Shown: positions 16,866-60,457 of the stretch, piece after piece
Position numbering within the stretch: position 1 is the first letter of the stretch
Layout of the letters: each line of letters starts with the position of its first letter
Source: an uncultured delta proteobacterium
GTDB lineage: Bacteria; Desulfobacterota; RBG-13-43-22
Length of the DNA: 64,000 bases
NCBI GenBank assembly: GCA_963802945.1
Contig: CAWDKY010000032.1
Span: forward strand, 43,444 to 107,443
Direction: 5' to 3'
Made by a program: the position numbers and the translations under genes
Notes under the pieces: model-generated
What the model was told of the DNA's origin: nothing
Databases searched by the model: none
What the model saw: only the letters and a program-made list of their open reading frames with translations

Positions 16866-16897
16866 GAAAAACGAGATTTTCCGAAATCTGTTAAGAT

Positions 16898-19028: not shown

Positions 19029-20567
19029 TTAATACTTTCCTAAATCTTCTTCGGAAATAAGAACTTCTTTGGTTCTTCTGGCCACGATCTTGGCCTGTTG
19101 AATAAATTGATACGGTTCAAGGGCCTCTGGGGGAACCTCTTTCACACTAACGCGGACGCCCTGCTTACGAAGGGCTTCCTGAACCAATTTTGCATCAAGT
19201 TTTTTCGGCGTCACATGATTCTTGACGGCCAGGGCCGCGGCCGTGCCGGCTGCCTGACCGGTACAGATAGAAGGTGTACAGTATCTGATGCCGGCAGCGC
19301 CAAAAGCACCGGCCGAAATGATAGCGCCGGCGGCCATAAGGTTTTCCACTTCTTTAGAAACCAAAGAACGGTAAGGAACGTCGTAGGGCAGGATGTCATA
19401 AGCAAACCGGCCCGACACTTCATAGACGTCAGGCGGCATATTGCTGATGGCTACAGCGTCCTCAAATATTTTGCCTTGGCGCATATCCCCGTAGGTCAGA
19501 ACGTGTTCGCCGATGAGTCTGTGCTGGTTGCCCCATAGGGCGAACTGTGGAAATCGGTCGATGTAGGAGTTCTCAAATCCGCCGACGTTTTCCTTAAGAG
19601 CCTTGTGGATAGCAACAGCCTGCTTCCTCATGTCTATCTCCCCGGCCGTCAGATCTTTGGTACTCCAGCAGGCTTCGCGCGCCGCGTAAAGCAAGGTCAT
19701 GATCCAAATCTTACCGCTTTGATGCATATCCCAGTTCTGGGAAACGATAATTTTATCGACAATAATATATTCTCCCGCTGCTTTTGCCTTGGCGAGGACC
19801 TTTGCTGCGCCGTACATGCCGGACCAGTCGTCCTTGTTGGCTACTCGAAAGGCGTCGAATTTGGTCTGGTCAACGCCTCCGATATAGAATGTGCTCAAAT
19901 AACCACTCTGGCGGCCTTTGTTTTTTCCGGCAGGATAACCTTCATCGCCGCTGCAGGGCGCCCTGGATTTCCATATCATGTCCCCTGTACCCGTCGTGTC
20001 AACAACTACTTTTCCCAAAACCGCCCTCCGGCCTTCCTTGCCTTCAACGATAACGCCTTTAAGCAAGTTTTCTTCCCTGATAGCGGCCACGGCAAAGGAA
20101 TGATATAACAATTTGACGCCTGCTTCGGCCATGAGACCGTCAAGCATATACTTGTAGTACTCCGGGTCAAAACAATAGCCCCAGCGCCCCCACCAGCCGA
20201 CTTCGGTTTCAACCATTCGCTTCGGCAATTTATCGGCGCCCAACGTTGCCATAAAAACGTCCTTCATCGGGGCTCGTGTTTCCGGAGGCAACTGCTCTGC
20301 GGTCAGCATAGCCCCGGCATCTTTGAGACGCCCCAGGAACTCCTGAATGATCCCGGAATGCAGTTCAGGATCGACAAAAGCGAACATTGAGTTTTGTCCC
20401 TGCGTTTGGAGTCCGCCCAAACTGCCAAACCGGTCTATAAGAATTGTCTGGGCGCCGGTTCGCGCCGCGGCTAAAGCTGCCCCTATGCCCGACGGCCCGC
20501 CGCCGACAACAACGACATCAGCTTCATCAAGAACGCTGATCTCTCGTTGCGGTTCAATAATTTTCAT
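19029..20567 (-). CDS. FAD-dependent oxidoreductase (FAD_oxidored/PF12831-like)
   Basis: VVGGGPSGIGAAL motif. ATG 20567 is preceded by AAGGAG. The track start at 20636 lies in the promoter. Confidence 0.85.
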   Translation of the reverse strand: MKIIEPQREISVLDEADVVVVGGGPSGIGAALAAARTGAQTILIDRFGSLGGLQTQGQNSMFAFVDPELHSGIIQEFLGRLKDAGAMLTAEQLPPETRAPMKDVFMATLGADKLPKRMVETEVGWWGRWGYCFDPEYYKYMLDGLMAEAGVKLLYHSFAVAAIREENLLKGVIVEGKEGRRAVLGKVVVDTTGTGDMIWKSRAPCSGDEGYPAGKNKGRQSGYLSTFYIGGVDQTKFDAFRVANKDDWSGMYGAAKVLAKAKAAGEYIIVDKIIVSQNWDMHQSGKIWIMTLLYAAREACWSTKDLTAGEIDMRKQAVAIHKALKENVGGFENSYIDRFPQFALWGNQHRLIGEHVLTYGDMRQGKIFEDAVAISNMPPDVYEVSGRFAYDILPYDVPYRSLVSKEVENLMAAGAIISAGAFGAAGIRYCTPSICTGQAAGTAAALAVKNHVTPKKLDAKLVQEALRKQGVRVSVKEVPPEALEPYQFIQQAKIVARRTKEVLISEEDLGKY

Positions 20568-20582
20568 ACCACACTCCTTTGA

Positions 20583-20636
20583 GAAGAATTTCTGTTTTGA
20601 TGGAAAAACTTTAAACTTAGAAAAAGGCGGGGTCAA
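20583..20636 (-). promoter_or_regulatory. promoter-leader cassette copy: TTGACC-N17-TAAAGT plus TTCCATCAAAACAGAAATTCTTC leader
   Basis: ggtcaa at 20631-20636 and acttta at 20608-20613, with a 17-nt spacer. The leader is homologous to those at 23632, 39150, 39228 and 45861. Confidence 0.55.
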
Positions 20637-22036: not shown

Positions 22037-23074
22037 TCATGCTTTCAGCTTTTCAACGACATCTCGAAGCTTTTTAAAAAGTTCTCCCTCACGTTCCGCG
22101 CAGGTAAGCATTAACTCGCTGGCCTTATCAAAATTGTCTCCGGACTGGCCTCGCTGTTTGATGATGCGCACAGCGATGACGGCAAAATGACGCCATAAAT
22201 CTCCAATAGAAGTCATTTCCTGCGATAATCGGGCAAGATCATCAGAGCCGCTAAAAAGATCAGAGGCTTCCTGAAGAAAGGCCGCATACATAAAGCGAAA
22301 TCCGGCGCCGCCTGTTCCTATTTCTTCCTGCATACGAATGAGATGAGCCAGTTGCCGGCAGGCTTCATTAAAACCAAACTTGTCCGGACTATCTTTAATC
22401 TTTTTAGCCAAATAACGTATGCCCCGTATGCCAAAAAGGGGCAAAGGAATTCTCAGCATCATGTTGCAGGTATCCTTCATACCCTTGATACAGGCTGTGC
22501 GCAGATCAGGATTAGGCCGGACGGTTTTCAGATAATACATTAAACCACGCGGCTCCAGCGGCCCGCGCGCGAAACGCGCCCTTTCCAGATCTTCCGCCAG
22601 ACAATCTACCGGGTGATCCAATATCGGGTCGCTCAAGCGGAAACCGTTTTCAATCTCATGCAGAACAATCAAGTTGTGTCCGTTAAAATTAAAACGAAAA
22701 CGTTTTGGAAAATAGGAAAGCCAGTAGATGTTGGTCTTCACTGCGACAACCTGTCCGGTTCGAAGTACGCGACGCAGTTCATCCATGCCTTTTTGGGGAT
22801 TGCGAAAACGCTTAAAGACGAATTTTCCCCCCAGTCTTGTGGTAGCTTTGCGGAAGATGGCTCCCGCCTGCGTCCTGTAAGTGCTGAGTGGCATCCCGAC
22901 CCATTTAATAAACGGCAGATGGCCGAAAAAAATGCCGCTCCCAATGCCGAAAGCCATGGGTTCGGAAATATCCACGCCCTCATGACGAAACAGAGCGGAT
23001 GTAACGCCGGATTCGCAATGGGCAGAAAAACGATGGATAAAAGGTTTGCCGTTGATTATGATTTCTGTCGTCAT
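22037..23074 (-). CDS. BtrH_N (C39-like cysteine transferase/peptidase) plus DUF4872 domain protein
   Basis: N-terminal FSAHCESGVTSALFRH (catalytic Cys context) and FNGHNLIVL (His). Size is 345 aa. An AAGGAAGG ribosome-binding site overlaps the stop of the upstream HTH gene. Confidence 0.75.
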   Translation of the reverse strand: MTTEIIINGKPFIHRFSAHCESGVTSALFRHEGVDISEPMAFGIGSGIFFGHLPFIKWVGMPLSTYRTQAGAIFRKATTRLGGKFVFKRFRNPQKGMDELRRVLRTGQVVAVKTNIYWLSYFPKRFRFNFNGHNLIVLHEIENGFRLSDPILDHPVDCLAEDLERARFARGPLEPRGLMYYLKTVRPNPDLRTACIKGMKDTCNMMLRIPLPLFGIRGIRYLAKKIKDSPDKFGFNEACRQLAHLIRMQEEIGTGGAGFRFMYAAFLQEASDLFSGSDDLARLSQEMTSIGDLWRHFAVIAVRIIKQRGQSGDNFDKASELMLTCAEREGELFKKLRDVVEKLKA

Positions 23075-23093: not shown

Positions 23094-23501
23094 TTATACT
23101 TGATCAGGCACGGTTTTCAACTCTTCCAGAGTAATGGCCAACACTTTTGCGTATTGGACTAAAACCGATAATTTAAGTTTTCTAAAAATATGCGGGCGGA
23201 AATGCCTCTTGACTCTGAATTTGGCTATGCCCGCTGTCTTAGCCAGAATCTTCGGGTTCATCTGACGCCGTTCCATATGGTAAACCAGCGGGCTTTTCAT
23301 GCCCGCGAGTACGGCTTTTCTGGTTTCCTCCAAATTGGCCGCCAATTCATCTACAGCGAGGCCGTTAATTTCTTCTTCTGCCTTCCAGCCGATACTGGGC
23401 ACAATGACATATTTCCCCTCATCATTGACAGCGTAACAGGCACGTTTTTGGTCTTCATAATATTGAGGAACGTCATCCTGTGGAACTTCATTTGTTTTCA
23501 T
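23094..23501 (-). CDS. small protein with C-terminal HTH-like domain, first gene of the BtrH-like operon
   Basis: 135 aa. The C-terminal segment KILAKTAGIAKFRVKRHF....L.VLVQYAKVLAITLEEL resembles an XRE-type HTH. Confidence 0.65.
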   Translation of the reverse strand: MKTNEVPQDDVPQYYEDQKRACYAVNDEGKYVIVPSIGWKAEEEINGLAVDELAANLEETRKAVLAGMKSPLVYHMERRQMNPKILAKTAGIAKFRVKRHFRPHIFRKLKLSVLVQYAKVLAITLEELKTVPDQV

Positions 23502-23631: not shown

Positions 23632-23686
23632 ATAAGAAGTTGCTTTTTGATGGGAAGAGTATAAGGAAAGAAGAAGACACGGTCAA
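23632..23686 (-). promoter_or_regulatory. promoter-leader cassette: TTGACC-N17-TATACT plus CCCATCAAAAAGCAACTTCTTAT
   Basis: ggtcaa at 23681-23686 and agtata at 23658-23663. The leader at 23632-23657 contains the inverted repeat AAGAAG-TTG-CTTTTT. Confidence 0.6.
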
Positions 23687-23825
23687 GGATAAAAATAGGG
23701 CGGAAGGCAAGGGGACAAGGGGGGACTTTAAAGAAAATGGGACTATACAGGTCTGGACTGTACAGATAAAAGTCGATAATAGGAAAAGGAAATCCGGCTC
23801 CCAATTTCTTACAGATTTTTCCCTT

Positions 23826-35957: not shown

Positions 35958-37003
35958 ATGGGTTTACGCTCCGGAACCTTTCAAGAAACCTACGCGCAGG
36001 ATATGGCTGTCTTCCGCACCAAGGCTGCAATGGGGAATGCTCCTGGTCTTTCCTCATCTTTCTTTTCACCTGCCCATTGTTATTTCAGTGACAGGATACT
36101 GACCATCATGACCATGATCGGTATTGCCATTATCAGTGTTCACGGGCTCAATATTCTGACCGGATACTGCGGCCAAATCTCCATGGGCCATGTGGGTTTT
36201 ATGGCAGTCGGCGCCTATGTCTCGGCGATCTTAACCGCCAAGCTCGGCTGGTCATTCTGGGCGGCCTTGCCCTGTGCCGCCCTGGCCGCGGGAATGGCAG
36301 GTTTGATCTTCGGTCTGCCGTCCTTAAAGATCAAGGGTTCTACCTCATTATGGCCACCATCGCCGCCCATTTTATTATTATCTGGCTGATCCTCCAGCTC
36401 CGAAGTATCACCGGCGGAGCTGACGGCATGGCTGTGCCCAAACCCCGGATAGGCAGTATCGTGTTGACGTCCAAAGCCAGCTACTTCTACCTGGTTATGA
36501 TAATGGCCTGCCTGGCCACGTTCTTGGCTGTAAACATGGTCAGGACCAGGGCAGGCAGGGCCTTCGTCGCCATCAGAGATAACGACCTGGCGGCTGAGGT
36601 CATGGGGATCAATCTGTGGAGTTATAAGCTGCAGGCATTCTTTATCGGCTGTGTTTATGCCGGAGTGGCCGGGGCCTTGCTGGTTCACTACTATGGATTC
36701 GCCAGTGTCGACCAGTTTCCCTTCATGGATTCCGTCTGGTATATGGGCATGCTGATTGTCGGCGGAATGGGCAGCATCCCGGGGGCTATTCTCGGCGCCG
36801 TATCTCTCAAGCTGCTGGATGAGCTGGTCACCATTGTCGGCCCCATCTTATCGGCAGCCGTTGCTGCCCAGGCAGCCGCTTCATTGGCCCTCATCACCCG
36901 GGGATTAGTCATTATTCTCTTTCTTATTTTTGAACCCAGGGGACTCGCACACCGGTGGGAGACTTATCAAGGCCTATTTCAGATTGTGGCCTTTCTCACA
37001 TGA
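35958..37003 (+). pseudogene. livM: ABC importer permease LivM-like, frameshifted as sequenced
   Basis: ORFs 35958-36389 and 36350-37003 join at ...LPSLKIKG / FYLIMATIAAHFII... near 36335-36345. The N-terminal region may contain further compensating indels. Confidence 0.85.
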
Positions 37004-38728: not shown

Positions 38729-38996
38729 TCATTTCTTTTGATTCGCTACGATATATTCAGCCATGGTTCTTATAGAGGTGAATATCTTCCGCCCTTCTCT
38801 TAGGTTTTCGATCTTAATACCGTAATTGTTTTCCATAAGAATGGCAAGCTCCATCGCATCAATAGAATCAAGACCCAACCCGTTTCCGAAAAGAGGTGCT
38901 TCCGTTTCAATTTCTTCCGGTGTAAGGTCTAACAGGTTCAGCAGCGGTTATGATCTCTTCCTTCAGTTTGAGAATCAATTCCTCCATGATTTTCAT
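38729..38996 (-). pseudogene. acyl carrier protein, single-nucleotide frameshift as sequenced
   Basis: The minus strand reads MKIMEELILKLKEEIIT, then after a 1-nt slip near 38940-38946 reads LLNLLDLTPEEIETEAPLFGNGLGLDSIDAMELAILMENNYGIKI...ANQKK with the phosphopantetheine Ser in GLDSID. The span is 268 nt (3n+1). This gene is not in the ORF track. Confidence 0.7.
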
Positions 38997-39149: not shown

Positions 39150-39205
39150 ATAAGAACTTGCTTTTTATGGGAGGAAGTATAAGTTGAAAAAAAAGTCGAA
39201 GTCAA
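39150..39205 (-). promoter_or_regulatory. promoter-leader cassette copy (TTGACT-N18-TATACT plus CCTCCCATAAAAAGCAAGTTCTTATC)
   Basis: agtcaa at 39200-39205 and agtata at 39176-39181. This is the copy nearest upstream of the ACP gene. Confidence 0.55.
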
Positions 39206-39227
39206 GGAGAAAATCAGGTCAAAATTT

Positions 39228-39283
39228 GATAAGAAGTTGCTTTTTGATGGGTAAAGTATAAGACAAAGAAAAGTTTAGATCAA
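39228..39283 (-). promoter_or_regulatory. promoter-leader cassette copy (TTGATC-N17-TATACT plus ACCCATCAAAAAGCAACTTCTTATC)
   Basis: gatcaa at 39278-39283 and agtata at 39255-39260. Homology to 23632-23795 continues to about 39394, where the IS30 element begins. Confidence 0.55.
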
Positions 39284-39394: not shown

Positions 39395-40505
39395 GGCAGA
39401 TTCTACTTGCAAGTGCGCCACATTAGATAACCGCAGGACATGATGGGATTTTCTGGTAGTGTGTGAAGCACGACCAACACGCACCCCAGAAAGGGACCCA
39501 TCATGCCCTATACCCATCTTACAGAAAAAGATCGATATGTCATCAGCCATTTGAAGGTGGCCGGTTTTTCGCTACGGGAGATTGGACGTCGTCTCGGGCG
39601 AGACCATGCCACCATTAGTCGGGAGATCAAACGTAACGGCCCAACCTATCCTGAAGGAATATACTGGTACGATTTCACACAACCCCGGGCCATTGAGCGG
39701 CGTCATAAAGCCCGGCATTATCGCCGGCATGATCACCGTACGCTGGTTGAATATGTTGAAGCTAAAATCCGTATCGAATGGCCTCCGGAAGTTATTGCTG
39801 CTCACCTAAAGCTTGATCACCCAAACGATAAAACCATGCGTATCTGCCAGGAAACTATTTATCGGTGGATATTTCAAGATGCTCAACAAGGTGGCGATCT
39901 CTACTGCTATCAGAGACGCCGTCACAAAAAACGCCGCAAACAAAGACGCTATGGCTCGGGAAGACGTTTTATCCCTGGGCGTGTTTCCATTGATCAACGT
40001 CCATCCCTGGTTGATTTACGCCAACGGTTTGGGGACTGGGAAGGGGACACGCTGGAAGGTGGAAAAGGAAAAGGGGGCCTGGCCACTCATGTCGAGCGTA
40101 AAGGCCGTTATCTATTGGCAGCCAAGCTCTCGGACAAGACCTCCAACACCATGACTCAGCAAAGCATTAAATCCTTTCGGAAAGCTCCCCGGACCCTACG
40201 CCATACCCTCACCGTTGATAATGGTAAAGAATTTTCTAATTTCAAAGAGCTCGAAAATAAAACCGGGTTAAAAGTCTATTTCGCAGACCCCTATGCAGCT
40301 TGGCAGCGGGGAATCAATGAAAATACAAATGGTCTGTTAAGACAATATTTCCCAAAAGGAACTGATTTCCAAAAGATATCGGAAAAAGAGATTGCTTTTG
40401 TCGTTAAAAAACTAAATAATCGCCCCAGAAAATGTCTCCACTACCAGACCCCTCATGCGGTCTTCTGTCAGGCTCTTAGTGGTGCACTTTGAAGTAGAAT
40501 CTGCC
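39395..40505 (+). mobile_element. IS30-family insertion sequence (1111 bp) with imperfect terminal inverted repeats
   Basis: IRL GGCAGATTCTACTTGCAAGTGC (39395-39416) matches the reverse complement of IRR at 40484-40505 (GGCAGATTCTACTTCAAAGTGC) at 20 of 22 positions. The element encloses the transposase ORF. No clear target duplication was seen. Confidence 0.9.
39503..40492 (+). CDS. IS30 family transposase
   Basis: N-terminal HTH ([21 protein letters not shown]) and DDE region ([28 protein letters not shown]). The 329-aa ORF is intact. Confidence 0.95.
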
Positions 40506-40602
40506 GTTTCACCTAAGGGGAACAACCCGAAGTATAAAAATCACCCTGCACCTTTTGAAAAAGGGAGGACCAGGGGAAATTTTAATAAGGTGTAGGACAT
40601 TC

Positions 40603-41510
40603 ATGGATCAAATTTTAAAAGGACTTTATCGCTTGGGAGTACGTGAGTTTCCTTCTTATCTCGTAGTGGGGAGCAGTCTAATTATTCAGGTTGATGCTGG
40701 AACCACATTTACGGGGCCGCAGGTCCTCCAAGATATTCAAGAAGCGCTGGGGAAAGGAAGGGGACCGGACTTTCTTTTCCACACCCATTCCCACTTCGAC
40801 CATGTAGGCAGCACCCCTTTTCTCAAGCGGCACTTTCCGGAGATAAAAATAGGCGGCAGTGAAACGTTCGCCAGGCGGCTCTCTCAGCCCAAGGCCGGGA
40901 AAGCCATAGCTGATCTCAACCGTGCGCTTGTTCAGAAAAATAATATGGACCAGGGCTTTATTCCCGGGGATTTTGACTACAGCCTCTTGACGGTTGAGCG
41001 GATTCTTAAAAACGGGGATTTGGTCGATCTGGGTGGAGGGGCATCGCTTGAGGTCCTCGCCACTCCCGGCCACACCAACGACAGCCTGAGCTTCTTTCTC
41101 CCCCATCTGGAGGTCATGCTGCCGGGCGATGCGCTCGGGATCCTTCCGGGAGATGATGTTTGGGTGGCGCCCCAGTTTCTATCTAGCTACGAGGATTATC
41201 TCGACTCCATCGATCGGGTTAGAAAAAAAGCGCCGAAAACCCTTCTCTTGGGCCATCACTCCGTGGTACGCCAAGCGGAATCGACCGATTTTTTAAGGCC
41301 GCTGTTTCCGACTGCCAGGCCTTCCGGGAGATGATCGAACAGTATCTGAACGAATTCCAGATGAAGGAAGAAATGGTCGTCCAGCGTATCCAGGCCGCCG
41401 AGTATCAGACGCTCCGCAAAAGCAAACAGCCCGAGGCGGCTTTTCTTTTAAACCTTGCCGCCCAGGTCCGCTTGATCGCGAGAGATATGAAAGGGGATCG
41501 GATGGGATAA
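40603..41510 (+). pseudogene. MBL-fold metallo-hydrolase, frameshift in a T6 run as sequenced
   Basis: HTHSHFDH metal motif. After the T run at 41289-41294 the ORF continues in another frame (FFKAAVSDCQAFREMIEQYL...) to the TAA at 41508-41510. The span is 908 nt (3n+2). Confidence 0.75.
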
Positions 41511-41633: not shown

Positions 41634-43154
41634 TTATTTTCCGAGCTTATCCTTAAGCTCCCTTTTCAGTATTTTACCGGCACTATTGCGGGGGAATTCT
41701 TTTACAAAAACGACCTTTTTGGGAATCTTAAAGTAGGCAATTTTTTCTTGGAGGACTTCGAGCAGTACTTCTTCGGTCATCGTAGCGCCCTTGTTCAGCA
41801 AAACAAAGGCCGCCACCACTTCGCCCCGCTTGGAATCGGGCATCCCGACCGCTGCGGCCTCCGACACTTGAGGAATCGATTCGATGGCGCGCTCCACTTC
41901 GGCGGCATAGATATTCTCTCCCGAACTGATAATCATATCGATCTTTCGGCCGACAATATAAAGAAACCCCTCACGATCCTGTTTCCCTAGATCGCCAGTG
42001 TAAAACCATCCATCGCGGAAAGACGCCTGCGTCTCTTGCTCCTTATTCCAGTATCTTAAAAAAACGGTGGGGCCCTTTACCACAACCTCACCAACTTCGC
42101 CCGGCGGCACATCCTGGCCGCTTTCATCCACGATTCGCAAGTGGGTGTGGAATACCTCTTTGCCGACCGACCCGGCTTTGCGGATAGTGTCTTCGAGATC
42201 CAGGGAGGTCAGTCGCAAAGTTTCGGTCATGGCATACCCCTGCGTGAACCGGACTCCCTTTTCCTCCTGATACTTGCGGATCAGGTCAACGGACATGGAA
42301 GCCCCGCCGGCAATGAAGAAATAGACGTGGGAAAAATCAGCTCTTTCCCAGGCGTCGGTTTTGGCCATCATTTCAAACATCACCGGTACCGCAAACATGT
42401 AGTTGATTTTTTCAGCGCAGATAAGCTCAACAACTTCCGAAGGGTTGTCGAAACTTTTAAGAACCAGCGAGCCTCCGGCATAAATAGCCGGCGTGGCCGA
42501 GGCGGCCAGGGCCCCGATGTGGAAAAGGGGAGCTACTACAAGGGATTTGCAGTTGGAGCTGATGCCGTAGCCGATCAGGGAATGGATGGCCCCAAAAAGA
42601 AAGTTTTCATGCGAAAGCACGGCCCCTTTGGGATCGCCGGTCGTCCCGGATGTATACATGATGACTAAGGGATCTTTCAGGGTCAATTCCTCCGCGGGAA
42701 TCGGTTCTTCTTCCGGAAATGAGGCTGTAAAATTCGCAAGAGAAGCATCGCTGGAAAATCGGTCGCCGCCATGCTGGAGATAATGCTCAACCGCTGGGGA
42801 TGCAGCTTTAAGCCCCTCGGCCTTGTCTACAAGTTCAGCAGAATAGATCAGGGCCCGGGGAGCGGCATCTTTAATGATATAACCCATTTCCGGCAGCGCC
42901 AGTTTTAAATTAATGGGGACGATCATCGCACCGGTTTTGGCGCAGGCAAAAAAGACTTCCAGAAATTCGCTGGAGTTGACCATCAGGGTTGCCACCCGTT
43001 CACCCTTTTTGACGTCGAGCGCTGCCAGCGCATGGGCGGTTTGGTTCACCCGCGCATTGAACTGGCGGTTGGTGAATGCCCGGTCTTCCTGTTTTAGAAA
43101 AGGCCGCTGCGGATAAGTCAGCGCGCGCTTGTAAATCCACTCCCCAATGTTCAT
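41634..43154 (-). CDS. AMP-dependent acyl-CoA/acyl-ACP ligase (FadD-like)
   Basis: YTSGTTGDPKGAVLSH, GWFYTGDLGKQDREGFLYIVGRKID and C-terminal NSAGKILKREL motifs. AAGGAG lies 8 nt upstream of ATG 43154. Confidence 0.9.
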   Translation of the reverse strand: MNIGEWIYKRALTYPQRPFLKQEDRAFTNRQFNARVNQTAHALAALDVKKGERVATLMVNSSEFLEVFFACAKTGAMIVPINLKLALPEMGYIIKDAAPRALIYSAELVDKAEGLKAASPAVEHYLQHGGDRFSSDASLANFTASFPEEEPIPAEELTLKDPLVIMYTSGTTGDPKGAVLSHENFLFGAIHSLIGYGISSNCKSLVVAPLFHIGALAASATPAIYAGGSLVLKSFDNPSEVVELICAEKINYMFAVPVMFEMMAKTDAWERADFSHVYFFIAGGASMSVDLIRKYQEEKGVRFTQGYAMTETLRLTSLDLEDTIRKAGSVGKEVFHTHLRIVDESGQDVPPGEVGEVVVKGPTVFLRYWNKEQETQASFRDGWFYTGDLGKQDREGFLYIVGRKIDMIISSGENIYAAEVERAIESIPQVSEAAAVGMPDSKRGEVVAAFVLLNKGATMTEEVLLEVLQEKIAYFKIPKKVVFVKEFPRNSAGKILKRELKDKLGK

Positions 43155-43169
43155 CGAGATTACTCCTTA

Positions 43170-43294
43170 ACAGGTTGCTGAAAAAGGCCCATCTACTGTG
43201 TTGCCCTCATCCCTCGTCATTGCGGCGTACCTCTGTGTACGCCTCACAGTCTCGGAATTTCGGCGCCTTGTATCTGGACCTTTTCGAGCAACCT
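43170..43294 (-). repeat. structured MITE-like intergenic element, copy B (125 nt)
   Basis: Terminal inverted repeats ACAGGTTGCTGAAAAAGGCCCA and TGGACCTTTTCGAGCAACCT, plus an internal GGCGTAC-N6-GTACGCC hairpin. Relative to copy A it lacks about 55 nt. Confidence 0.7.
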
Positions 43295-43322
43295 TTAAAA
43301 TAAATTGGTAATACGCAAATTG

Positions 43323-44546
43323 TTAAGTAATATTTTTCAGCACCAGCGAAACAAAGGTCCCCCCGGATGAAAACCCGTTTATCAGACCGAAATTAATTGG
43401 AAGGTCTATCTTTTTTTCCATGACAAACCGCAGCGGACGGATCGGATTTTTAAGACCGACCGTGGGGGGAATGCTTCCCGCCTTTATCGATAAGGCCATG
43501 GCCGCCGTCCTTATCCCCCCGGATGAGAAGCTCTCACCCACAGCCCCTTTAATGGCGCTGATATAGGGTCGATCAGTAGCGCTTCCAAATACGATAGACA
43601 GCGCCTCGGCCTCAAGGGCGTCCAGTCTGCTGCCGCCGCTGGCGGCGGCCGAGACATAATCGATTGCGCCGGGGGCGATCCCGGCCGAATTCAGCGCCCG
43701 GGTGATCGCCAGGACCGACCCCCGGGGATCTGAAGGCCAGTCGGTGGGCGGGGCCGGCGCTGAGCTCAGGCCCCATCCGACAATTTCACAATAGGGTCTG
43801 TGCCCGCGGGCCTCGGCCTGCGAGAAGGTCTCAAGGCATACCATCCCCGCCCCCTCGCCGACTACCGGTCCGTTTCGACGGATGTCAAAGGGACGTGCTC
43901 CCTCCGGCCCGCCGCCTAACGGGGAAAGGGCCTTAAAATGGGTCAGCACTCTAAAAAAGAATTCTGAAATAATATCTACGCCACCGGCAAACATAAAATC
44001 GGCCCGGCCTTGTTTAATCTCAGAAGCGGCGTAGACGATGGCCGTCTCGGCCGAGGCCTCACGGTGATTGATGGTTGAGTTGATCCCCCTGAAGCCAAGC
44101 TCGATGGAAGTATGGCCGGCCGGCGCGTTCATCACCGTATTCGGCACCTGAAAGGGACCGACCATCCCCGGGCCTTGGCTGAGAAGCACTCCGGCAAACT
44201 GGGCGGCAACGTCGGTGCTGCCGACGGCGGTCCCCAGGATAATCCCCGTCCGATCCCGGTTGGAGACGTCTATGCTGACCCCGGCATCCTCCAGGGCCAT
44301 CCTGGCTGAAGCGCAGGCCAGAGAGGATGTCCGGTCCATCTTGCGAAGGTTTTTCACGGAGATGAACGCTCTGGGGCTAAAGTCCGTTACAGCCGCTCCC
44401 AGTTTGGAAGCAAAATGGGACGTATCAAAATGCGTAATCGGGGAGATGCCGCAGTCTCCCCGGAAAAGTTTCTGCAAGAAATCATCCTTTCCAACCCCTA
44501 AGGGAGTGACCAGGCCGACCCCGGATATGACCACACGGTTACTCAT
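43323..44546 (-). CDS. beta-ketoacyl synthase-like protein lacking the Cys-His-His triad (chain-length-factor-like partner)
   Basis: Aligned to the adjacent KS, TACSSGATAI becomes HREASAETAI, AHGTAT becomes AAASGG, and TGHTLGAAG becomes VGESFSSGG. ATG 44546 overlaps the upstream stop by 8 nt. Confidence 0.85.
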   Translation of the reverse strand: MSNRVVISGVGLVTPLGVGKDDFLQKLFRGDCGISPITHFDTSHFASKLGAAVTDFSPRAFISVKNLRKMDRTSSLACASARMALEDAGVSIDVSNRDRTGIILGTAVGSTDVAAQFAGVLLSQGPGMVGPFQVPNTVMNAPAGHTSIELGFRGINSTINHREASAETAIVYAASEIKQGRADFMFAGGVDIISEFFFRVLTHFKALSPLGGGPEGARPFDIRRNGPVVGEGAGMVCLETFSQAEARGHRPYCEIVGWGLSSAPAPPTDWPSDPRGSVLAITRALNSAGIAPGAIDYVSAAASGGSRLDALEAEALSIVFGSATDRPYISAIKGAVGESFSSGGIRTAAMALSIKAGSIPPTVGLKNPIRPLRFVMEKKIDLPINFGLINGFSSGGTFVSLVLKNIT

Positions 44547-45786
44547 GGGCAATCCCTCTCGGGGTATAACTTCCCAAAACGATGGCGGTGTTGTTTCCGC
44601 CGAAGGCAAAAGAATTGGAAAGAACGATATTCACCTCCGCCTCCCGGCAGCCTTCGGTAACATAGTCCAGATCACATTCGGGGTCGGGTTCGGTCAGGTG
44701 AATCGTCGGCGGAATAAAATGCTGAAAAATAGCCAGAACGCAAGCCACTGCTTCGATGGCGCCGGCCGCGCCCAAGGTGTGGCCCGTCATGGATTTTGTG
44801 GAACTCACCGGGAGGTGATAGGCCCGTTGGCCGAAAACCGCCTTGATCGCCTTGGTTTCTACAGGATCGTTGGCCGGGGTGGCCGTGCCATGGGCGTTGA
44901 TATAGTCCACCTGCTCAGGGGCTAGGCCGCTGTCCTGCAAGGCGGCTTCTATACAGCGCACCGCCCCCGAAGCCTCAGGGTCCGGAGCGGTCATATGGTA
45001 GCTGTCGCAACTCACCCCGTATCCGAGGACCTCCCCGTAGATGCGCGCTCCCCGCTTTTGCGCCTGGCTCAAGGCCTCCAGGATCATGATGCCGGCCCCT
45101 TCGCCGAGAGAAAGCCCCTGCCGGTTTTTGTCGAAAGGCTTGCAATATTCCGGGTCCACCGCCTGCAGCGCGTTAAAAGCGCCGTAAGTAATCCGGCAAA
45201 GGGGTTCGGTGCCTCCGGCGATAACCACGGTTGCCGTCCCCTCCCGGATCAGATCCCTGGCATACCCGATGGCCGTGGCGCCGGATGAACAGGCGGTCAT
45301 GAATGTGGTTTTGGGTCCCATCAGCCCTAAGTTTGAGGCGATCTGGTCCGCGGAAGAGGCGCAGCAAAAGGCCGAAAAAGGCGAATAGCGGACGCCTTTA
45401 CCGCTGCCCTGGAGATATTGGCGATAGGCCTCCTCGCCTTCCAGCATGCCGCCGGCCCCGCCGCCGATAACAACGCCGGTATCGGCCTGCAGGACTTCCG
45501 GAAAAGGAAAAAGTCCCGCATCGCTCAAGGCCTCCAGCGCAGCCGCCATGGCCATGCGGTCCGAACGAGACATCCGCTTTAATGAGAATTCCGGCGGGAT
45601 CATCTCGCGTGGGGCAAAATTTTTCACTTCCCCGCCGGTATGGGTTCTGAAGTCGGTCGTATCAAAGACCGTGACCGGTCCGATGCCGCATACCCCTTGC
45701 CTTAGAGCTGCGCTGAATTTAGACGCACTCCCGGCAATGGCATTGATGGTTCCCAGTCCGGTGATGACGACTCTTTCTTTTTCCAT
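44539..45786 (-). CDS. beta-ketoacyl-ACP synthase (KAS I/II-type, catalytic triad intact)
   Basis: Active-site TACSSGATAIGYA, HGTATPANDPVE, GHTLGAAG and SNSFAFGGNN motifs. Confidence 0.9.
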   Translation of the reverse strand: MEKERVVITGLGTINAIAGSASKFSAALRQGVCGIGPVTVFDTTDFRTHTGGEVKNFAPREMIPPEFSLKRMSRSDRMAMAAALEALSDAGLFPFPEVLQADTGVVIGGGAGGMLEGEEAYRQYLQGSGKGVRYSPFSAFCCASSADQIASNLGLMGPKTTFMTACSSGATAIGYARDLIREGTATVVIAGGTEPLCRITYGAFNALQAVDPEYCKPFDKNRQGLSLGEGAGIMILEALSQAQKRGARIYGEVLGYGVSCDSYHMTAPDPEASGAVRCIEAALQDSGLAPEQVDYINAHGTATPANDPVETKAIKAVFGQRAYHLPVSSTKSMTGHTLGAAGAIEAVACVLAIFQHFIPPTIHLTEPDPECDLDYVTEGCREAEVNIVLSNSFAFGGNNTAIVLGSYTPRGIAHE

Positions 45787-45860: not shown

Positions 45861-45914
45861 CTAGGAACTTGCTTTTTGAGAGGAGACTATAAACCAAGGG
45901 AAAAACGGGGTCAA
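45861..45914 (-). promoter_or_regulatory. promoter-leader cassette copy (TTGACC-N17-TATAGT plus CTCCTCTCAAAAAGCAAGTTCCTAG)
   Basis: ggtcaa at 45909-45914 and actata at 45886-45891, about 100 nt upstream of the KS start. Confidence 0.55.
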
Positions 45915-48050: not shown

Positions 48051-48404
48051 TCAAAATGATTTCTTTTCTTTCTGCAGGTATTCCCCCAAAAGGCCCCGGG
48101 AATGGATATCCTCGTGGCAATAGGCACAAAGATTTTCCCAGTTACTTCCGTCCGGCGGGTTGTTCAGATGGTTTCCATCCTTATGGTGGACGGTCAGGAG
48201 TTGCCTCTGGGCAGGGGTAAATTCCCGGCCGCAACGGGCACAGATCAAACCGTGTAGGGTCAGCGATCGTTCCCGGTAATTCTCCTTAACGGGGATGTTG
48301 GTCCGGATTTCCTGTACAATCTCCTTGATGGTTTTATTGCCGGGTTGCCCGGGTTTTTTCCCCCGCTGGGATTGCCGGCCTGGTCCGAAAGTCATACGGC
48401 CCAT
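48051..48404 (-). CDS. yajD: HNH endonuclease family protein YajD
   Basis: LTVHHKDGNHLNNPPDGSNWENLCAYCHEDIH closely matches the YajD-type HNH core. Confidence 0.8.
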   Translation of the reverse strand: MGRMTFGPGRQSQRGKKPGQPGNKTIKEIVQEIRTNIPVKENYRERSLTLHGLICARCGREFTPAQRQLLTVHHKDGNHLNNPPDGSNWENLCAYCHEDIHSRGLLGEYLQKEKKSF

Positions 48405-49819: not shown

Positions 49820-50992
49820 CTACTTACTGAGGAGGCTTCGATATACTTCTACATTTTGTTTTGCAATCACATCCCAGCTAAATAATCTTGATGCCCTTTC
49901 ATACAAGCGCCGGCCTATTTCTTCTCTCTGTTGTGAGTCACGGATAAGCCTAAGCATTTTTTCTGCCAAGTCGGCCGGGTCATTCTCTTTTACAAATATC
50001 CCATCTCCACCGATATACTCCGGCAGGCCAACCGATCGAGAGGCAATAACCGGCACAGCGTTAGCCATGGCCGTAGTTACTGTCGATCCGGCTTCACTGG
50101 TTGTATAGGGGATGACCAAGAATAAACTCTTTTGGTATTCCACCCACAATTCTTGCTCATTCGTAAAGACATAGTCAAACCATTTAACCTGATCAGTCAA
50201 ACCCGATTGGGCAATGGGCTCAATTCCCTCTTCCTGACCGTATTCACGATTCAACCCGTGGATAAGGACTTTTGGGCTAATCCCCTTTTCTTTTAAGATG
50301 ACCAGGGCCTTTAAAAATAGATCGAAGCCCTTACCATGGGCCAAATGATGCCCGCCGCAAAAAATGATCTGATCTCGTGAATATGAAGTCAAATTCGGTA
50401 GGTGGGTCCCATGGGGGATGACATGAATCTTTTCAGCTTGAATACCCCAGGATTCCAATTGTTTTTTCATGGGAAGCGTTTGAACAATAAGGGCATCAGC
50501 TTTATTATAGACCCGGTTTAATCGGACTGTAGTCAGCTTGAAATTCTTTAATTTAAATTGCTTCTGGATGGAATCGATTTCATGAATGGTGACCACCCGC
50601 TTAGACTCGGTCGGGAAAGTCAAAAAAGAAAGCAAGGGTAGAAAGCCGAAAGAGCCCTGGGTCTGCTGATAATTTAATATAGGCAGCTTCAGGTGTTTCA
50701 GGTACCGAGCCCCCTTGAAGACATCCCCCCCATATTCAGGCAGGAGTCGGGCCAGCCGTTTAATCCTGGACCCCGGTTTGGGGTAAAAATCGGCAAAATG
50801 CATTTGGGGAACAAGGGAGAAGGACAAATCGGGGTTAAACGGATCGTGACCATAACACCGGCAGTTGGCCGACAGGATATGGACTTTCAGACCTGTTCGT
50901 TCAAGGGCCGAAGACAGCCTGTTGGCAAAGTTGCCGCAACTTTTCTCCTTATACCAGCAAGCAATTATCCCAATTTCCTCCAAGTGATCCAT
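49820..50992 (-). CDS. glycosyltransferase family 4 (GT-B, RfaB-like)
   Basis: C-terminal E-x7-E-type region SEAGSTVTTAMANAVPVIASRSVGLPEYI. Size is 390 aa. Confidence 0.85.
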   Translation of the reverse strand: MDHLEEIGIIACWYKEKSCGNFANRLSSALERTGLKVHILSANCRCYGHDPFNPDLSFSLVPQMHFADFYPKPGSRIKRLARLLPEYGGDVFKGARYLKHLKLPILNYQQTQGSFGFLPLLSFLTFPTESKRVVTIHEIDSIQKQFKLKNFKLTTVRLNRVYNKADALIVQTLPMKKQLESWGIQAEKIHVIPHGTHLPNLTSYSRDQIIFCGGHHLAHGKGFDLFLKALVILKEKGISPKVLIHGLNREYGQEEGIEPIAQSGLTDQVKWFDYVFTNEQELWVEYQKSLFLVIPYTTSEAGSTVTTAMANAVPVIASRSVGLPEYIGGDGIFVKENDPADLAEKMLRLIRDSQQREEIGRRLYERASRLFSWDVIAKQNVEVYRSLLSK

Positions 50993-51723
50993 TGAACCCC
51001 CTTCCTGATTAATGATTTAAGAAACCGCTTTCTTCCTTCGGTTAATTCCGGATTTAGGATGAGTTGAAGTATTTGATCAGCGACCTCCTCGGGTCTTGCC
51101 GGAGAAATATTTTTTAAAAAATCTCTTGGAAAAAGGCTTAACATCTCCGTATCGACATATCCCGGGCAGAGGTAAGCAATTTTGATATTCGTAGCGGCCA
51201 CCTCCTGTGACAAGGCTTCAGTCAAGCCAACCAGCCCGAATTTTGAGGCACAATAAACGGCTAGATTAGGGAACCCTCCTTTCCCGGCCCCAGAGACCAA
51301 ATTAATAATTTGCCCATAACCTTGCCTCAGCATGATCAACAATACTTCGCGCGAGCAAAGAAAAGCCCCTTTTAAATTGGTATCAATCATTTTATCCCAA
51401 TCCGCGCTCGTTGTCGAGACCATTGGACCATAAACCAATACTCCTGCATTATTAATCAGAACATCTATCCGCCCATAGCGATCCACGACCTGAGCGATGA
51501 GGCTCTTCACTTCCTTCTCTTGTCGGACATCGGTAGGAATTGGAATACAAGAACCACCCTTAGCCTTAATGAGGCCGCAAGCCTTTTCCAAGGCTTCCTT
51601 ATTCCGTGCCGCCAGAATCACCTGTGCGCCTTTTTCAACCAAAATCAGAGAAGTTGCCAACCCGATTCCCTTGCTGGCGCCAGTCACAATAATCACTTTG
51701 TCTTGGACTAAACTTTTATTCAT
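50965..51723 (-). CDS. SDR family oxidoreductase
   Basis: TGASKGIG cofactor motif, NNAG, and YCASK active site. Confidence 0.9.
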   Translation of the reverse strand: MNKSLVQDKVIIVTGASKGIGLATSLILVEKGAQVILAARNKEALEKACGLIKAKGGSCIPIPTDVRQEKEVKSLIAQVVDRYGRIDVLINNAGVLVYGPMVSTTSADWDKMIDTNLKGAFLCSREVLLIMLRQGYGQIINLVSGAGKGGFPNLAVYCASKFGLVGLTEALSQEVAATNIKIAYLCPGYVDTEMLSLFPRDFLKNISPARPEEVADQILQLILNPELTEGRKRFLKSLIRKGVQWITWRKLG

Positions 51724-58296: not shown

Positions 58297-59434
58297 TTAC
58301 CCTTCCGCCTTGGTTATGACCATATTGTCCCGGTGTATCACTTCATCCGAATGTTTGAATTCCAGTCGTCTTTCAATTTCCGAGGTCTTCAGTCCACGGA
58401 TTTTCATTATATCTGAAGACGAATAATTAACCAGTCCTTTTCCAACAACTCGATCTGTTTGATCCACAAGGCTGACACAGGCTCCGATCCCAAAACGCCC
58501 GCGCACTTCAACCACTCCTGAAGGCAGCAGACTTTTCCCCTTTTCCGTCACAGCCTTTTTAGCCCCTTCATCCACGACAATTTCCCCTTTGGGTTTAAGG
58601 GTAAAAGCGATCCAGTGTTTCTTCCGACTTAAGAGCGGTTTTTGGGGTAGGAAAAAGGTACCCAGGGGTTTCCCTTTGATGATCTCTTGTAGAACACCCG
58701 GCTTCCTTCCATTGGCGACAATGACCGGAATACCGCCGGCTGTGACCTTTCGAGCGGCCATTATCTTGGAGCGCATCCCGCCCAAACCCCACTGCTCCTG
58801 AATATTTCGAGGTATATTCGACGACCTTTCCATCGACATGTTCAACCACGGGAATTAAGCGGGCCTTGGGGTCTTCCCGAGGATCCCGATCATAAAGTCC
58901 TTCCGTATCGGTCAGAACGATTAACAGATCGCTTTCGATCAGATGAGCGATCAAGGCCGAAAGGTTGTCATTGTCGCCGAATTTAATTTCATCCACAGCC
59001 ACCGTGTCGTTTTCGTTGATAATCGGGATGATTCCCCATTCTAAAAGGGTGATCAAGGTATTTCTGGCGTTCAGATACCGTTGACGATTGGTTAGGTCTT
59101 CACGGGTCAAAAGGATCTGGGCCACCAACAACTGATGGGTATTAAAGGCCTCTTCATAAGCATACATCAAGCTTCCCTGGCCGACCGCCGCCACGGCTTG
59201 TTTCTGAGGAATGGTAACCGGTTTCCGGCTCAGACCCATCTTGCCTACACCCGAAGCAATGGCCCCTGAACTGACGATAGCCGTTTGATACCCTTTCTTT
59301 CTCAAAAAGGCGATATCATCGGCCAAACGGGCAATGGCCGGACGATGCAATACCCCGTTATCGGTCAGGACTGCGCTGCCGATTTTGATTACGATCTTTT
59401 TAATCCCTTTAATGAGGGCTTTTCGTTGTTCCAT
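58297..59434 (-). pseudogene. proB: glutamate 5-kinase, one frameshift as sequenced
   Basis: The N-terminal part (59434 downward, VIKIGSAVLT, NENDTVAVDEIKFGDND) and the C-terminal part (GLGGMRSKI..., PUA domain) join if one T is removed from GGGGTTTGGG near 58783-58792. Confidence 0.9.
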
Positions 59435-60457
59435 CAATCCGGTCCAATTCTCCAGAGTCTCTTGGTCGCAACAGTCGAAAAAAGGTGATCTATTAAAAAG
59501 GGAATACCTTCTCCGGTTTTGGCCGATATGGGAATCACATCCTGTTTGAGCTTTTTAAAAGCCCTTTGGATCCTTTTGAAATTGGCTTGCGATGGAGGTA
59601 AGTCCATCTTATTGACCACCACCAGTCGAGTTTTATCCAAAAGGGTCGTGATTATAGGCCTCCATTTCCTTTACCAGGGTCTGATAGGAAAAAAAGGTTC
59701 TTTCCCTGGTAAGGAGCCGTCAATCAAAAACACTAGAACTTCAGTCCGATCAATGTGCTTGAGGAATTTGAGTCCCAGCCCGGCCCCCTCGCTTGCACCG
59801 GCAATAATCCCAGGAATATCGGCTATAGTCAAGCGCTGTCCTTGATTATTTTCAAGAATCCCAAGGTTGGGTGCAAGGGTGGTAAAAGGATAGTCGGAAA
59901 TTTTGGGTTTGGCGTGCTGAAAGCCTGGAAAGCAGGGTAGATTTCCCGGCATTGGGCAGGCCCACCAGTCCTATCTGGGCCAATACTTTCAACTCCAGTA
60001 ACAGCCAGGCCTCGATGCCCGGCTCTCCTCTTTGGGCGAATCTCGGGGTCCGATGAGTGGCCGTGGCAAAGTGCTTATTCCCCTTGCCCCCTCTCCCACC
60101 CCGGGCAACGACTAAGGTCTGACCTTCTCTGGTTAAATCCGCTAAGACTTCCCCTGTTTCCAGCTCCCGAACCAGGGTCCCCAAGGGAACGATGAGTCGA
60201 ATGTCCTGGCCTTTTCTGCCGTCTCGATCATTACCCTGACCGTGGGCCCCTTTGGGGGCCTTAAAATGCTGATGAAAATGATAATCCTGTAAGGTCTGAC
60301 ACTGAGAGGTGGCGGTAATCAGGACGTCCCCGCCCTTGCCCCCATCGCCGCCGTCCGGACCTCCCCGGGGTTTAAATTTCTCCCGTCGGAAGCTTAGGCA
60401 CCCATTGCCCCCGTCTCCGGATCGAACAAAAATTTTGGCTTCGTCAAAGAATTTCAA
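59434..60457 (-). pseudogene. obg: GTPase Obg/CgtA, three frameshifts as sequenced
   Basis: Obg fold ([19 protein letters not shown]), G1 GLPNAGKST, then [13 protein letters not shown] in another frame (slip near 59930). Two compensating slips lie in T runs near 59690 and 59655, around [19 protein letters not shown] is in the last piece. Confidence 0.9.

Follow-up and report, generated by a model that had tools for sequence, protein, structure and literature searches.

A compact KS1-KS2-ligase-MBL-ACP gene cassette in an uncultured delta proteobacterium, related to aryl-polyene and anammox ladderane-type systems

We analyzed a 64,000-nt stretch of DNA (referred to below as the window) from an uncultured delta proteobacterium (GCA_963802945.1, contig CAWDKY010000032.1, forward-strand positions 43,444-107,443), which contains three adjacent minus-strand genes coding for two beta-ketoacyl synthases (KS1 and KS2) and an adenylating ligase. 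Next to these are a gene for a metallo-beta-lactamase (MBL)-fold hydrolase, an IS30-family insertion sequence (IS) and a gene for an acyl carrier protein (ACP) (Table 1). An earlier reading, made from the nucleotide sequence only, had described the first three genes as a type II polyketide synthase (PKS)/fatty acid synthase (FAS)-like initiation and elongation module, with KS2 as a catalytically dead partner of KS1 in the manner of KS/chain-length factor (CLF) heterodimers; its coordinates and gene calls for the three genes hold. We think it reasonably likely that the locus is a small, conserved gene set for the starter and extension steps of a type II (dissociated) PKS/FAS-like pathway in Thermodesulfobacteriota, evolutionarily tied to the aryl-polyene and the anammox 'ladderane cluster' systems, and its product is probably a polyketide- or lipid-like molecule. 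Loci in other genomes are referred to by number (e.g. L006).

Table 1. Features of the gene cassette and its candidate regulon (positions are counted from the first nucleotide of the window).
Feature	Coordinates	Strand	Description
KS1	44539-45786	minus	FabF-type beta-ketoacyl synthase, active type, 415 aa; Pfam PF00109 + PF02801
KS2	43323-44546	minus	Full-length, predicted non-catalytic KS paralogue, CLF-like, 407 aa from ATG 44546; PF00109 + PF02801
Hairpin repeat in KS2-ligase spacer	43167-43300	no strand	Repetitive extragenic palindrome (REP)/miniature inverted-repeat transposable element (MITE)-like; variable insertion, not a core part
Ligase	41634-43154	minus	Adenylating acyl/aryl ligase, ANL superfamily, 506 aa; Pfam AMP-binding + AMP-binding_C
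MBL-fold hydrolase	40555-41510	plus	PqsE-like, probable thioesterase; Pfam Lactamase_B; convergent with the ligase
IS30-family element	39395-40505	plus	Transposase with HTH_38 + rve; interruption, not a component
Promoter/leader cassette upstream of ACP	39151-39283	minus	Two tandem copies 79 nt apart; motif search
ACP	38729-38996	minus	ApeE-type, 88 aa once the 1-nt insertion at codon 18 is removed; reading frames and intact orthologues
Promoter/leader cassette of the KS operon	45862-45914	minus	TTGACC, 17-nt spacer, TATAGT, then conserved CAAAAAGCAAGTTCCTA
BtrH-like unit: promoter/leader cassette; 135-aa protein; BtrH_N/DUF4872 protein	23633-23692; 23094-23501; 22037-23074	minus	Probable distal part of the regulon

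The KS1 gene had been read as coding for a complete beta-ketoacyl-ACP synthase (KAS), and Cys166, His299, Lys331 and His336 are all present. Its stop codon (TAA, 44541-44539) and the KS2 start codon (ATG at 44546) lie within an 8-nt overlap, ATGAGTAA, which is preceded by a GAGAGGG ribosome-binding site, and the two genes are predicted to be translationally coupled. KS2 has Glu at the Cys site, Ala at the position of the first His and Glu at that of the second His, with the Lys retained, so that both the overlap and the Glu/Ala/Glu replacements are as first described; there is no Cys at the catalytic position or in the rest of the motif. A search of 5.8 billion proteins recovered 1159 relatives of KS2, of which the best 120 were used for comparison. 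These are 56-91% identical to KS2 and are encoded in Desulfobacterales or Thermodesulfobacteriota metagenome-assembled genomes (MAGs). The Cys site is Glu in 115 of the 120, Ala in four and Gln in one, the first His is replaced by Ser, Ala or Gly, and all 120 retain the Lys and carry Glu in place of the second His. In codon comparisons with four relatives, dN/dS values are similar for KS2 (0.18-0.27), KS1 (0.14-0.27) and the ligase (0.17-0.27). KS2 diverges somewhat faster than KS1 (e.g. 60% identity to its L017 counterpart, vs 71% for KS1), which is typical of an accessory subunit. Because the triad substitutions are conserved among the homologues and dN/dS is like that of KS1, KS2 does not appear to be a decaying copy, and is best interpreted as inactive by design and under purifying selection.

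These observations bear on a simple alternative, in which KS1 and KS2 are ordinary housekeeping FabF duplicates, one of them degenerating, that happen to lie beside an unrelated fatty-acid CoA ligase. PGAP-style models would indeed name both proteins beta-ketoacyl-ACP synthase II (PRK07314), for which KS1 scores 437.6 bits, above the cut-off, and KS1 matches cyanobacterial FabF as well as it does the anammox protein amxFabF2: its joint top matches in the PDB are Synechocystis FabF (1e5m, 363.2 bits) and amxFabF2 (9s5h_B, 361.5 bits). We take entry 9S5H, together with 9S5I, to be the anammox amxFabF2/amxFabFmut pair; this is our own assignment, the code being absent from the available portion of the text of the preprint on that pair. 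However, both window proteins fall below the cut-off of the fabF equivalog model TIGR03150 (493.75 bits), with scores of 454.9 bits for KS1 and 303.2 bits for KS2, and there is no fab-operon context, with none of fabH, fabD, fabG or acpP near KS1 and KS2 in the window. The canonical FabF 'RNDDPxxAS' loop is missing from both KS1 and amxFabF2, which align with each other without gaps at this point, and in a neighbour-joining tree KS1 groups with amxFabF2 and with the N-terminal halves of KS-KS fusion proteins (see below), apart from the canonical FabFs. With the KS2 substitutions near-fixed among the best 120 homologues and under purifying selection, and with the ligase, MBL and ApeE-type ACP genes syntenic across genomes, the FabF-duplicate explanation is largely refuted, and we consider it extremely improbable.

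Several lines of evidence suggest that KS1 and KS2 act together. Among 26 genome loci, KS1 and KS2 lie side by side wherever the sequence extends far enough to tell, and an exhaustive representative search finds many natural KS-KS fusions of ~800-830 aa in which the N-terminal half has the Cys-His-Lys-His residues and the C-terminal half lacks them. In the neighbour-joining tree the fusion N-halves fall with KS1 and the C-halves lie in the clade holding KS2, and the fusions therefore present a Rosetta-stone case for a KS1-KS2 interaction. More generally, the tree divides the inactive partners (x-x-K-E/D) from the active ones, each as a clade of its own outside canonical FabF, although this split is only suggestive because the tree lacks support values. 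The closest solved relative of KS2 is amxFabFmut (9s5h_C, 242.8 bits), with FabF at ~228 bits and the actinorhodin CLF at 127 bits; among the best 60 of the 115 PDB matches to KS2 at E <= 1e-10 there is no chain labelled as the Iga12 CLF. In the preprint on the anammox proteins, amxFabF2 and amxFabFmut are shown by biochemistry and crystallography to be a KS/CLF-like heterodimer, with malonyl-ACP being decarboxylated only when both are present, and the system is proposed to function in ladderane fatty acid synthesis (Granatino et al., bioRxiv 10.64898/2026.05.19.726425). Taken with the conserved loss of the triad, the adjacency, the purifying selection and the fusions, the anammox structure supports the KS/CLF-type initiation and elongation role proposed in the sequence-only reading.

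The resemblance to the anammox pair is considerable. Both consist of adjacent FabF-derived paralogues, one with an intact Cys-His-His triad and one full-length protein without it; in KS2 as in amxFabFmut the Lys is retained and the second His replaced by Glu; and KS1 clades with amxFabF2 and KS2 with amxFabFmut, although again in a neighbour-joining tree lacking support values. Furthermore, relatives of the window cassette carry genes for B12 radical S-adenosylmethionine (SAM) enzymes, a hotdog dehydratase and a phytoene-desaturase-like flavoenzyme, as the anammox system does. There are also clear departures. The Cys site is Glu in KS2 and Val or Thr in amxFabFmut, and the gene order is reversed, with KS1 first here and the mutant gene upstream in the anammox genomes as stated in the preprint. 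Identity to the window proteins is ~35-40%, and the window host is not an anammox planctomycete. The window ACP resembles ApeE and not amxACP, the cassette includes a ligase and a PqsE-like hydrolase, and there are no counterparts of the anammox Cluster I amxFabZ, PDH and B12 radical SAM genes in the window.

Other KS/CLF systems are less similar in sequence. The actinorhodin KS-alpha/KS-beta (1TQY) and Iga11/Iga12 (6KXD) pairs likewise combine an active KS with an inactive partner of the KS fold, encoded by adjacent coupled genes and served by a dedicated ACP. The aromatic KS-beta proteins have Gln at the Cys position, whereas KS2 has Glu and Gln occurs in just one of the best 120 of its 1159 homologues; there are no cyclase or aromatase genes among the window open reading frames (ORFs) scanned, and the sequence kinship is far weaker, with KS2 scoring only 127 bits against the actinorhodin CLF. 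We considered whether KS2 is an orthologue of the aryl-polyene protein ApeC or of aromatic KS-beta, and rejected both, given this low CLF score and the lack of any BLAST hit between KS2 and ApeC (240 aa, PF13723). The match of KS2 to the NCBIfam model PRK06519 covers residues 3-115 only and scores 49.8 bits, against a cut-off of 320.

The conserved cassette extends beyond the KS and ligase genes. Its five closest relatives (L006, L008, L009, L010 and L027) are in MAGs from soil, peat and groundwater labelled delta proteobacterium or Thermodesulfobacteriota, and have KS2 proteins 88-93% identical to that in the window. In L006, L008, L009 and L010, the KS1-KS2-ligase genes, a convergent MBL gene and then the ACP gene are contiguous, whereas the flanking genes differ in each genome; the MBL gene adjoins the ligase in these four loci as well as in L001 and L027. 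In L027 the KS1-KS2-ligase-MBL genes are present, with no ACP detected after the MBL gene. The window keeps the relatives' KS1-KS2-ligase-MBL-ACP order, with IS30 (inverted repeats of 27 nt at 39395-39421 and 40479-40505) in the divergent intergenic region between MBL and ACP, where no such element is present in the same four relatives. The sequence-only reading had correctly placed the sole ACP 2.6 kb past the ligase, beyond the MBL gene and IS30, and there is indeed a single ACP-like ORF in the window. It had, however, treated MBL and ACP as bystanders; both are conserved members of the cassette in the relatives and IS30 is an insertion, and we predict that the functional unit comprises the five genes KS1-KS2-ligase-MBL-ACP, split here by IS30. 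In the closest relative, L006, an IS200-type transposase gene lies just past the ACP gene, and because of this and the IS30 element in the window, the cassette borders appear to attract mobile elements.

The two additional genes are informative as to function. In the PDB the ACP best matches Acinetobacter baumannii ApeE (9LS6, with 59.6 bits vs 27.6 bits for the runner-up), and in comparison with the aryl-polyene cluster of E. coli CFT073 (L032) its identity is 50% to ApeE (84 aa aligned, E 8e-26) and 29% to ApeF. In aryl-polyene biosynthesis ApeE serves as the starter ACP, which the adenylating enzyme ApeH loads (PMC12624758). The MBL ORF in the window carries a THSHFDH metal-binding motif (an HxHxDH site), and the intact L006 orthologue matches PqsE with 64-65 bits (E ~1e-17), the next family being at 32 bits. 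PqsE is a 2-aminobenzoylacetyl-CoA thioesterase, and the MBL protein is by similarity a probable thioesterase and a plausible product-release enzyme. It had been noted that no ketoreductase (KR), dehydratase (DH), enoylreductase (ER) or thioesterase (TE) gene adjoins the operon; this stands for KR, DH and ER, but the claim as regards TE needs to be softened because the MBL protein is PqsE-like.

Both the MBL and ACP genes have interrupted reading frames in the window. The ACP gene is 268 nt long, vs 267 nt in the relatives, and the frame is lost beyond codon 17 through an extra base (ACC GCT[G] CTG AAC), whereas L006, L008, L009 and L010 have intact orthologues of 88 aa; the MBL gene is matched by two tblastn segments in different frames, with the change of frame near 41283-41335. 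A possible explanation is that the cassette is a non-functional remnant, inactivated by IS30 and by the ACP and MBL frameshifts, and that nothing is made by it in this strain. The 1-nt ACP insertion, the spread of MBL over two frames, the location of IS30 within the divergent MBL/ACP promoter region and the absence from the window of the relatives' accessory genes would fit with this. However, other genes in the window are split in a similar manner: Obg is in three ORFs (59434-60457), ProB is truncated (58595-59437) and the Liv permease/LivM gene is split (35958-37003). Obg is essential and a triple split is unlikely to be tolerated, and because it is split three ways in the same window the ACP and MBL frameshifts are likelier to be assembly errors; the pattern suggests a long-read assembly, and they probably represent indel errors of this kind. 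KS1, KS2 and the ligase gene are intact with low dN/dS relative to close relatives, and two intact promoter cassettes are retained at the ACP gene. We therefore regard the remnant explanation as quite unlikely, and note that calls of single-gene 'pseudogenes' in the window require caution.

The ligase, described before as an adenylating enzyme following KS2, has the AMP-binding and AMP-binding_C domains that this implies, and lies directly after KS2 in ~16 of the ~20 informative loci. Its substrate class can be approached both from its own similarities and from its neighbours. The NCBIfam model PRK06187 (long-chain-fatty-acid--CoA ligase subfamily) is passed narrowly, with 478.8 bits against a cut-off of 476, and the top PDB matches are feruloyl-CoA synthetase (8wev/8weu, 330 bits) and FadD13 (314 bits). 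In nine loci a 4-methylideneimidazole-5-one (MIO)-type aromatic amino-acid ammonia-lyase gene lies directly after the orthologous ligase gene, and in six there is a DctPQM tripartite ATP-independent periplasmic (TRAP) transporter; the lyase has the ASG MIO motif, and its nearest structures are tyrosine aminomutase, tyrosine ammonia-lyase (TAL) and histidine ammonia-lyase (HAL). Because of the ApeE-type ACP, the lyase and TRAP genes beside orthologous ligases, the feruloyl-CoA synthetase top hit and the analogy with PqsE, we favor an aromatic starter, and a cinnamate, coumarate or benzoate type appears the most likely, a medium-chain fatty acid less so.

A fatty-acid starter is the main rival to this because of the 314-bit match to FadD13 and the passing of the long-chain fatty-acid ligase model. 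It would imply a fatty-acid-primed, specialised lipid pathway in which the ligase is an acyl-ACP or acyl-CoA synthetase and KS1/KS2 elongate the acyl group to an unusual membrane or envelope lipid chain, comparable to that in anammox bacteria. That KS1 and KS2 have the anammox pair and FabF as their nearest solved relatives is in keeping with such a pathway, as are the genes for B12 radical SAM, hotdog dehydratase, LolA-like, LPLAT and lipid A acyltransferase proteins that are carried by relatives. On the other hand, the ACP is of the ApeE type, which carries an aryl starter, the MIO ammonia-lyase genes follow the orthologous ligases in nine loci, the top structural match of the ligase is a feruloyl-CoA synthetase and the MBL protein resembles an aroyl-acetyl-CoA thioesterase. 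We consider the fatty-acid-primed pathway a serious alternative, albeit on balance an unlikely one.

The KS2 and ligase genes had been described as separated by a 125-nt structured repeat; the spacer measures 168 nt, and within it lies a hairpin repeat of ~134 nt that is predicted to fold at -62.4 kcal/mol (z = -6.45). A second copy of the repeat is at 16682-16869, both copies are intergenic and they are 79-89% identical; there is no Rfam family match to 43167-43300, and in the relatives the spacer varies from 16 to ~400 nt. A riboswitch or leader function was considered and rejected on account of the lack of an Rfam match, the copy elsewhere and the variable spacer length. Because of the second copy, the absence of an Rfam family and the variable spacer, the repeat is best viewed as a REP/MITE-like intergenic insertion.

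The relatives provide a broader view of the pathways in which the cassette may participate, and several of them share genes with aryl-polyene clusters. The L027 locus (KS2 92% identical) has directly upstream genes for a short-chain dehydrogenase/reductase (SDR) 47.5% identical to ApeQ, a LolA-like protein, an ApeF-like ACP, a 4HBT thioesterase (31% to ApeK), a KS (38% to ApeR), an LPLAT protein (32% to ApeD), an amine-oxidase/phytoene-desaturase-like flavoprotein and an Sfp-type phosphopantetheinyl transferase (PPTase). In the distant relatives L001, L004 and L005, KS1-KS2 are beside genes for a divergent ApeP-like dehydratase, a LolA-like protein and a 225-aa protein, and there is a B12-binding gene (~5400-8570) with weak to faint Radical_SAM matches. 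L020 and L021 have a second KS accompanied by a short PF13723 (ApeC-type) CLF, a FabH-like gene and a beta-eliminating lyase of the tyrosine phenol-lyase/tryptophanase family. On these sequence relationships the cassette belongs to a broad aryl-polyene/'ladderane-like' biosynthetic gene cluster (BGC) family. Clusters of this sort are flagged by antiSMASH in Desulfobacterota, with their function acknowledged as unknown (PMC9902471).

We also note that B12-binding radical SAM genes are present in L020 (6946-8496), L010 (16527-18065) and L033 (13552-15009), and that the occurrence of B12 radical SAM and hotdog dehydratase genes, joined in L027 by that for a phytoene-desaturase-like flavoprotein, beside FabF-like KS/inactive-KS pairs in non-anammox Thermodesulfobacteriota parallels the ladderane Cluster I set. 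The anammox preprint describes Cluster I as unique to ladderane producers (bioRxiv 10.64898/2026.05.19.726425).

In comparison with aryl-polyene clusters themselves (Grammbitter 2019, as cited in PMC12624758), the window cassette likewise joins a KS/CLF pair with a starter ACP and an adenylating enzyme. Its ACP has the glycine-rich FGxGLGLDSID motif of ApeE in addition to the 50% identity, and relatives carry ApeQ-, ApeK-, ApeR-, ApeD-, ApeF-, ApeP- and LolA-like genes beside KS1-KS2-ligase. It differs in that KS2 is a full-length protein of 407 aa as opposed to the short 240-aa ApeC, in the identity of only 35-36% between KS1 and ApeO or ApeR, in the lack of similarity of the ligase to ApeH, and in the absence from the 64-kb window of genes for ApeI/ApeP dehydratases, the ApeQ reductase and LolA-like, MMPL and LPLAT proteins. 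There are no tblastn matches in the whole window to the relatives' ApeP-like, LolA, 225-aa, B12 radical SAM, lyase and DctPQM genes, nor anywhere in it to the aryl-polyene-like genes of L027. A window SDR gene (50965-51723, 5 kb upstream) was examined as a candidate KR of the pathway and rejected, since its identity to the SDRs that accompany the cassette in relatives is no more than 30-37% and its own neighbours are glycosyltransferase and GNAT genes.

A third comparison is with the Pqs pathway, in which PqsA is the ligase, PqsD acts as a condensing enzyme and PqsBC is a heterodimer with an inactive PqsB. Both systems have an aryl-acid ligase, a condensing enzyme with an inactive partner and an MBL-fold thioesterase that releases a beta-keto acid, at least as predicted here, and PqsE is the sole strong solved relative of the cassette MBL protein (through its L006 orthologue). 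However, the window KSs are FabF-type (KAS II) rather than FabH-type, an ACP is used here, the PqsE similarity is modest, there is no PqsH- or PqsL-like gene and there is no evidence for quinolones. Thus the nearest kin of the cassette are by descent the anammox pair, by accessory genes the aryl-polyene clusters and by working logic Pqs. The locus lacks defining features of each of these systems, yet, in contrast to the assessment that it matches no textbook cluster, it belongs to a known, if poorly understood, aryl-polyene/'ladderane-like' class.

A further element of the cassette is its promoter region. A promoter/leader cassette of ~75 nt consists of a T-rich tract, TTGAC(C/T), a spacer of 17-18 nt, TATA(C/G)T, another 6-8 nt and CAAAAAGCAAGTTCTTATCA. 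There are four copies in the window, all on the minus strand: one upstream of KS1, two in tandem upstream of ACP and one at 23633-23692. A motif search yields five matches, vs 0.46 expected, and the fifth, with three mismatches inside the ligase gene, is not part of such a cassette; this agrees with the earlier observation that the ACP gene carries the promoter-leader cassette of the KS operon. The KS1 copy is the top sigma-70-like match (10/12), and within 38.3-46.1 kb no site of this type scores above the KS1 and ACP copies. The cassette also precedes KS1 in L006 (8716-8731), L008 (254-269) and L010 (8670-8685), and the SDR gene in L027 (16038-16053). The copy at 23.6 kb belongs to a repeat family (D4) of 101 nt at 80% identity. 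The invariant stretch just past the -10 hexamer could be a putative operator or a conserved transcript start, and the sharing of the cassette suggests a link among three transcription units that are candidates for co-regulation.

The transcription unit at 23.6 kb encodes a 135-aa protein without a Pfam family, followed by a protein with the Pfam BtrH_N and DUF4872 domains. The unit recurs in L033-L035 at 70-78% identity, L035 having three such pairs in tandem, and the 135-aa protein is always ahead of the BtrH_N/DUF4872 protein; the pair is spread among Smithellaceae, Syntrophaceae and Desulfobacterales (7513 hits, E <= 1e-20). In L033 and L035 the BtrH-like pair is beside ACP-KS-(short partner)-B12 radical SAM genes, and in L020 and L021 its neighbours are KS1-KS2-(ligase-lyase) on one side and an ApeE-like ACP plus the second KS pair on the other. 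BtrH, from butirosin biosynthesis, is an ACP-dependent acyltransferase that acts onto an amine, and the BtrH_N/DUF4872 protein of the window is a putative enzyme of this kind. Because of the shared promoter cassette and the position beside KS and ACP genes in relatives, we count the pair as a probable distal member of the regulon, with a role deduced from these associations. As to the 135-aa protein, there is a sub-threshold match to the helix-turn-helix family HTH_26 (E 0.012), and a single-sequence AlphaFold model is unusable (predicted local distance difference test score, pLDDT, 48.8); the three tandem BtrH-like pairings in L035 fit better with a partner subunit than with a repressor binding the promoter cassette.

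Also in this part of the window are two adjacent FAD_oxidored (PF12831) paralogues on the minus strand (17593-18966 and 19029-20636) that share a 202-nt stretch at 71% identity, with genes for an alpha/beta hydrolase, a major facilitator superfamily (MFS) protein and an ATP-binding cassette (ABC) ATPase downstream of them on the same strand. The ABC ATPase is 37-38% identical to the products of ABC genes that follow the BtrH-like genes in L020, L033 and L035.

From these components a pathway can be proposed. The ligase would adenylate a carboxylic acid and load it onto the dedicated ApeE-type ACP or CoA, and KS1 would condense it with malonyl-ACP by decarboxylation, working only as a heterodimer with KS2, which would shape the acyl tunnel in the fashion of a chain-length factor. 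The PqsE-like MBL hydrolase would then free the (beta-keto)acyl product from its thioester; alternatively, off-loading may involve the BtrH-like enzyme, encoded at 22 kb in the window behind the same promoter cassette, which would move the ACP-bound acyl group to an amine acceptor. Ketoreduction and dehydration, if they occur, could fall to the housekeeping FAS II, or to enzymes encoded in other parts of the genome, acting in trans. A different view of KS2 is that it is not truly dead, and that the Glu residues at its Cys and second-His sites are catalytic, for example in malonyl decarboxylation or priming. The five-gene block would then be a self-contained and possibly mobile pathway of one or a few condensations, releasing a free beta-keto acid, or a methyl ketone derived from it, from an aromatic or acyl starter. 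We think this improbable.

Several points weigh against the proposed starter-and-extension pathway. None of the KR, DH, ER, LolA or exporter genes of such a pathway are in the 64-kb window, and the lyase and TRAP genes that point to an aromatic starter are lacking from the window and from its closest clade. BLAST gives no match between the ligase and E. coli ApeH at E <= 0.01, and the ligase's scores against the fatty-acyl ligases (FadD13, PRK06187) nearly equal that of the aromatic match. By sequence KS2 belongs to neither the ApeC-type nor the aromatic KS-beta-type CLFs, and the KS tree is a neighbour-joining tree lacking support values; the KS1/KS2 heterodimer is deduced from the fusions and from the structure of the homologous anammox heterodimer. 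Finally, the broken ACP and MBL frames, together with the IS30 element between the two promoters, mean that this strain may have an inactive cassette.

There are several other features in the window. The product of a plus-strand ORF (2103-5156) has 1017 aa, four PAS domains and an HD domain of the HD-GYP type, and within the ORF, at 2920-3981, are three tandem 381-nt repeats, 72-73% identical, that correspond to repeated PAS domains. A 108-nt direct repeat (92% identity) is present at 9604-9711 and 12573-12680, 3 kb apart, and flanks a periplasmic-binding-protein gene region. A stand-alone HNH endonuclease gene (117 aa, 48051-48404, minus strand) is located between ABC-F ATPase and FemAB-like GNAT genes.

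Many type II PKS/FAS-like cassettes are uncharacterised, and the present findings do not conflict with current understanding. FabF-derived KS/CLF-type heterodimers have, however, only just been shown experimentally, in anammox bacteria, and the cassette described here appears to share the ancient active/inactive split of the anammox pair in non-anammox Thermodesulfobacteriota, with a very small and different gene set. The Glu at the Cys site, as opposed to Val or Thr in the anammox proteins, offers a comparative handle on the role of the inactive partner. The KS1-KS2-ligase core, plugged into differing accessory sets across genomes, is an example of modular reuse, and the five genes would provide an expression-ready entry to the products behind 'ladderane' and 'aryl polyene' BGC calls in anaerobes. 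If the block were the self-contained pathway considered improbable above, it would do with FabF-type enzymes and an ACP what PqsA, PqsD and PqsE do in making a signal precursor, and this in strictly anaerobic Thermodesulfobacteriota.

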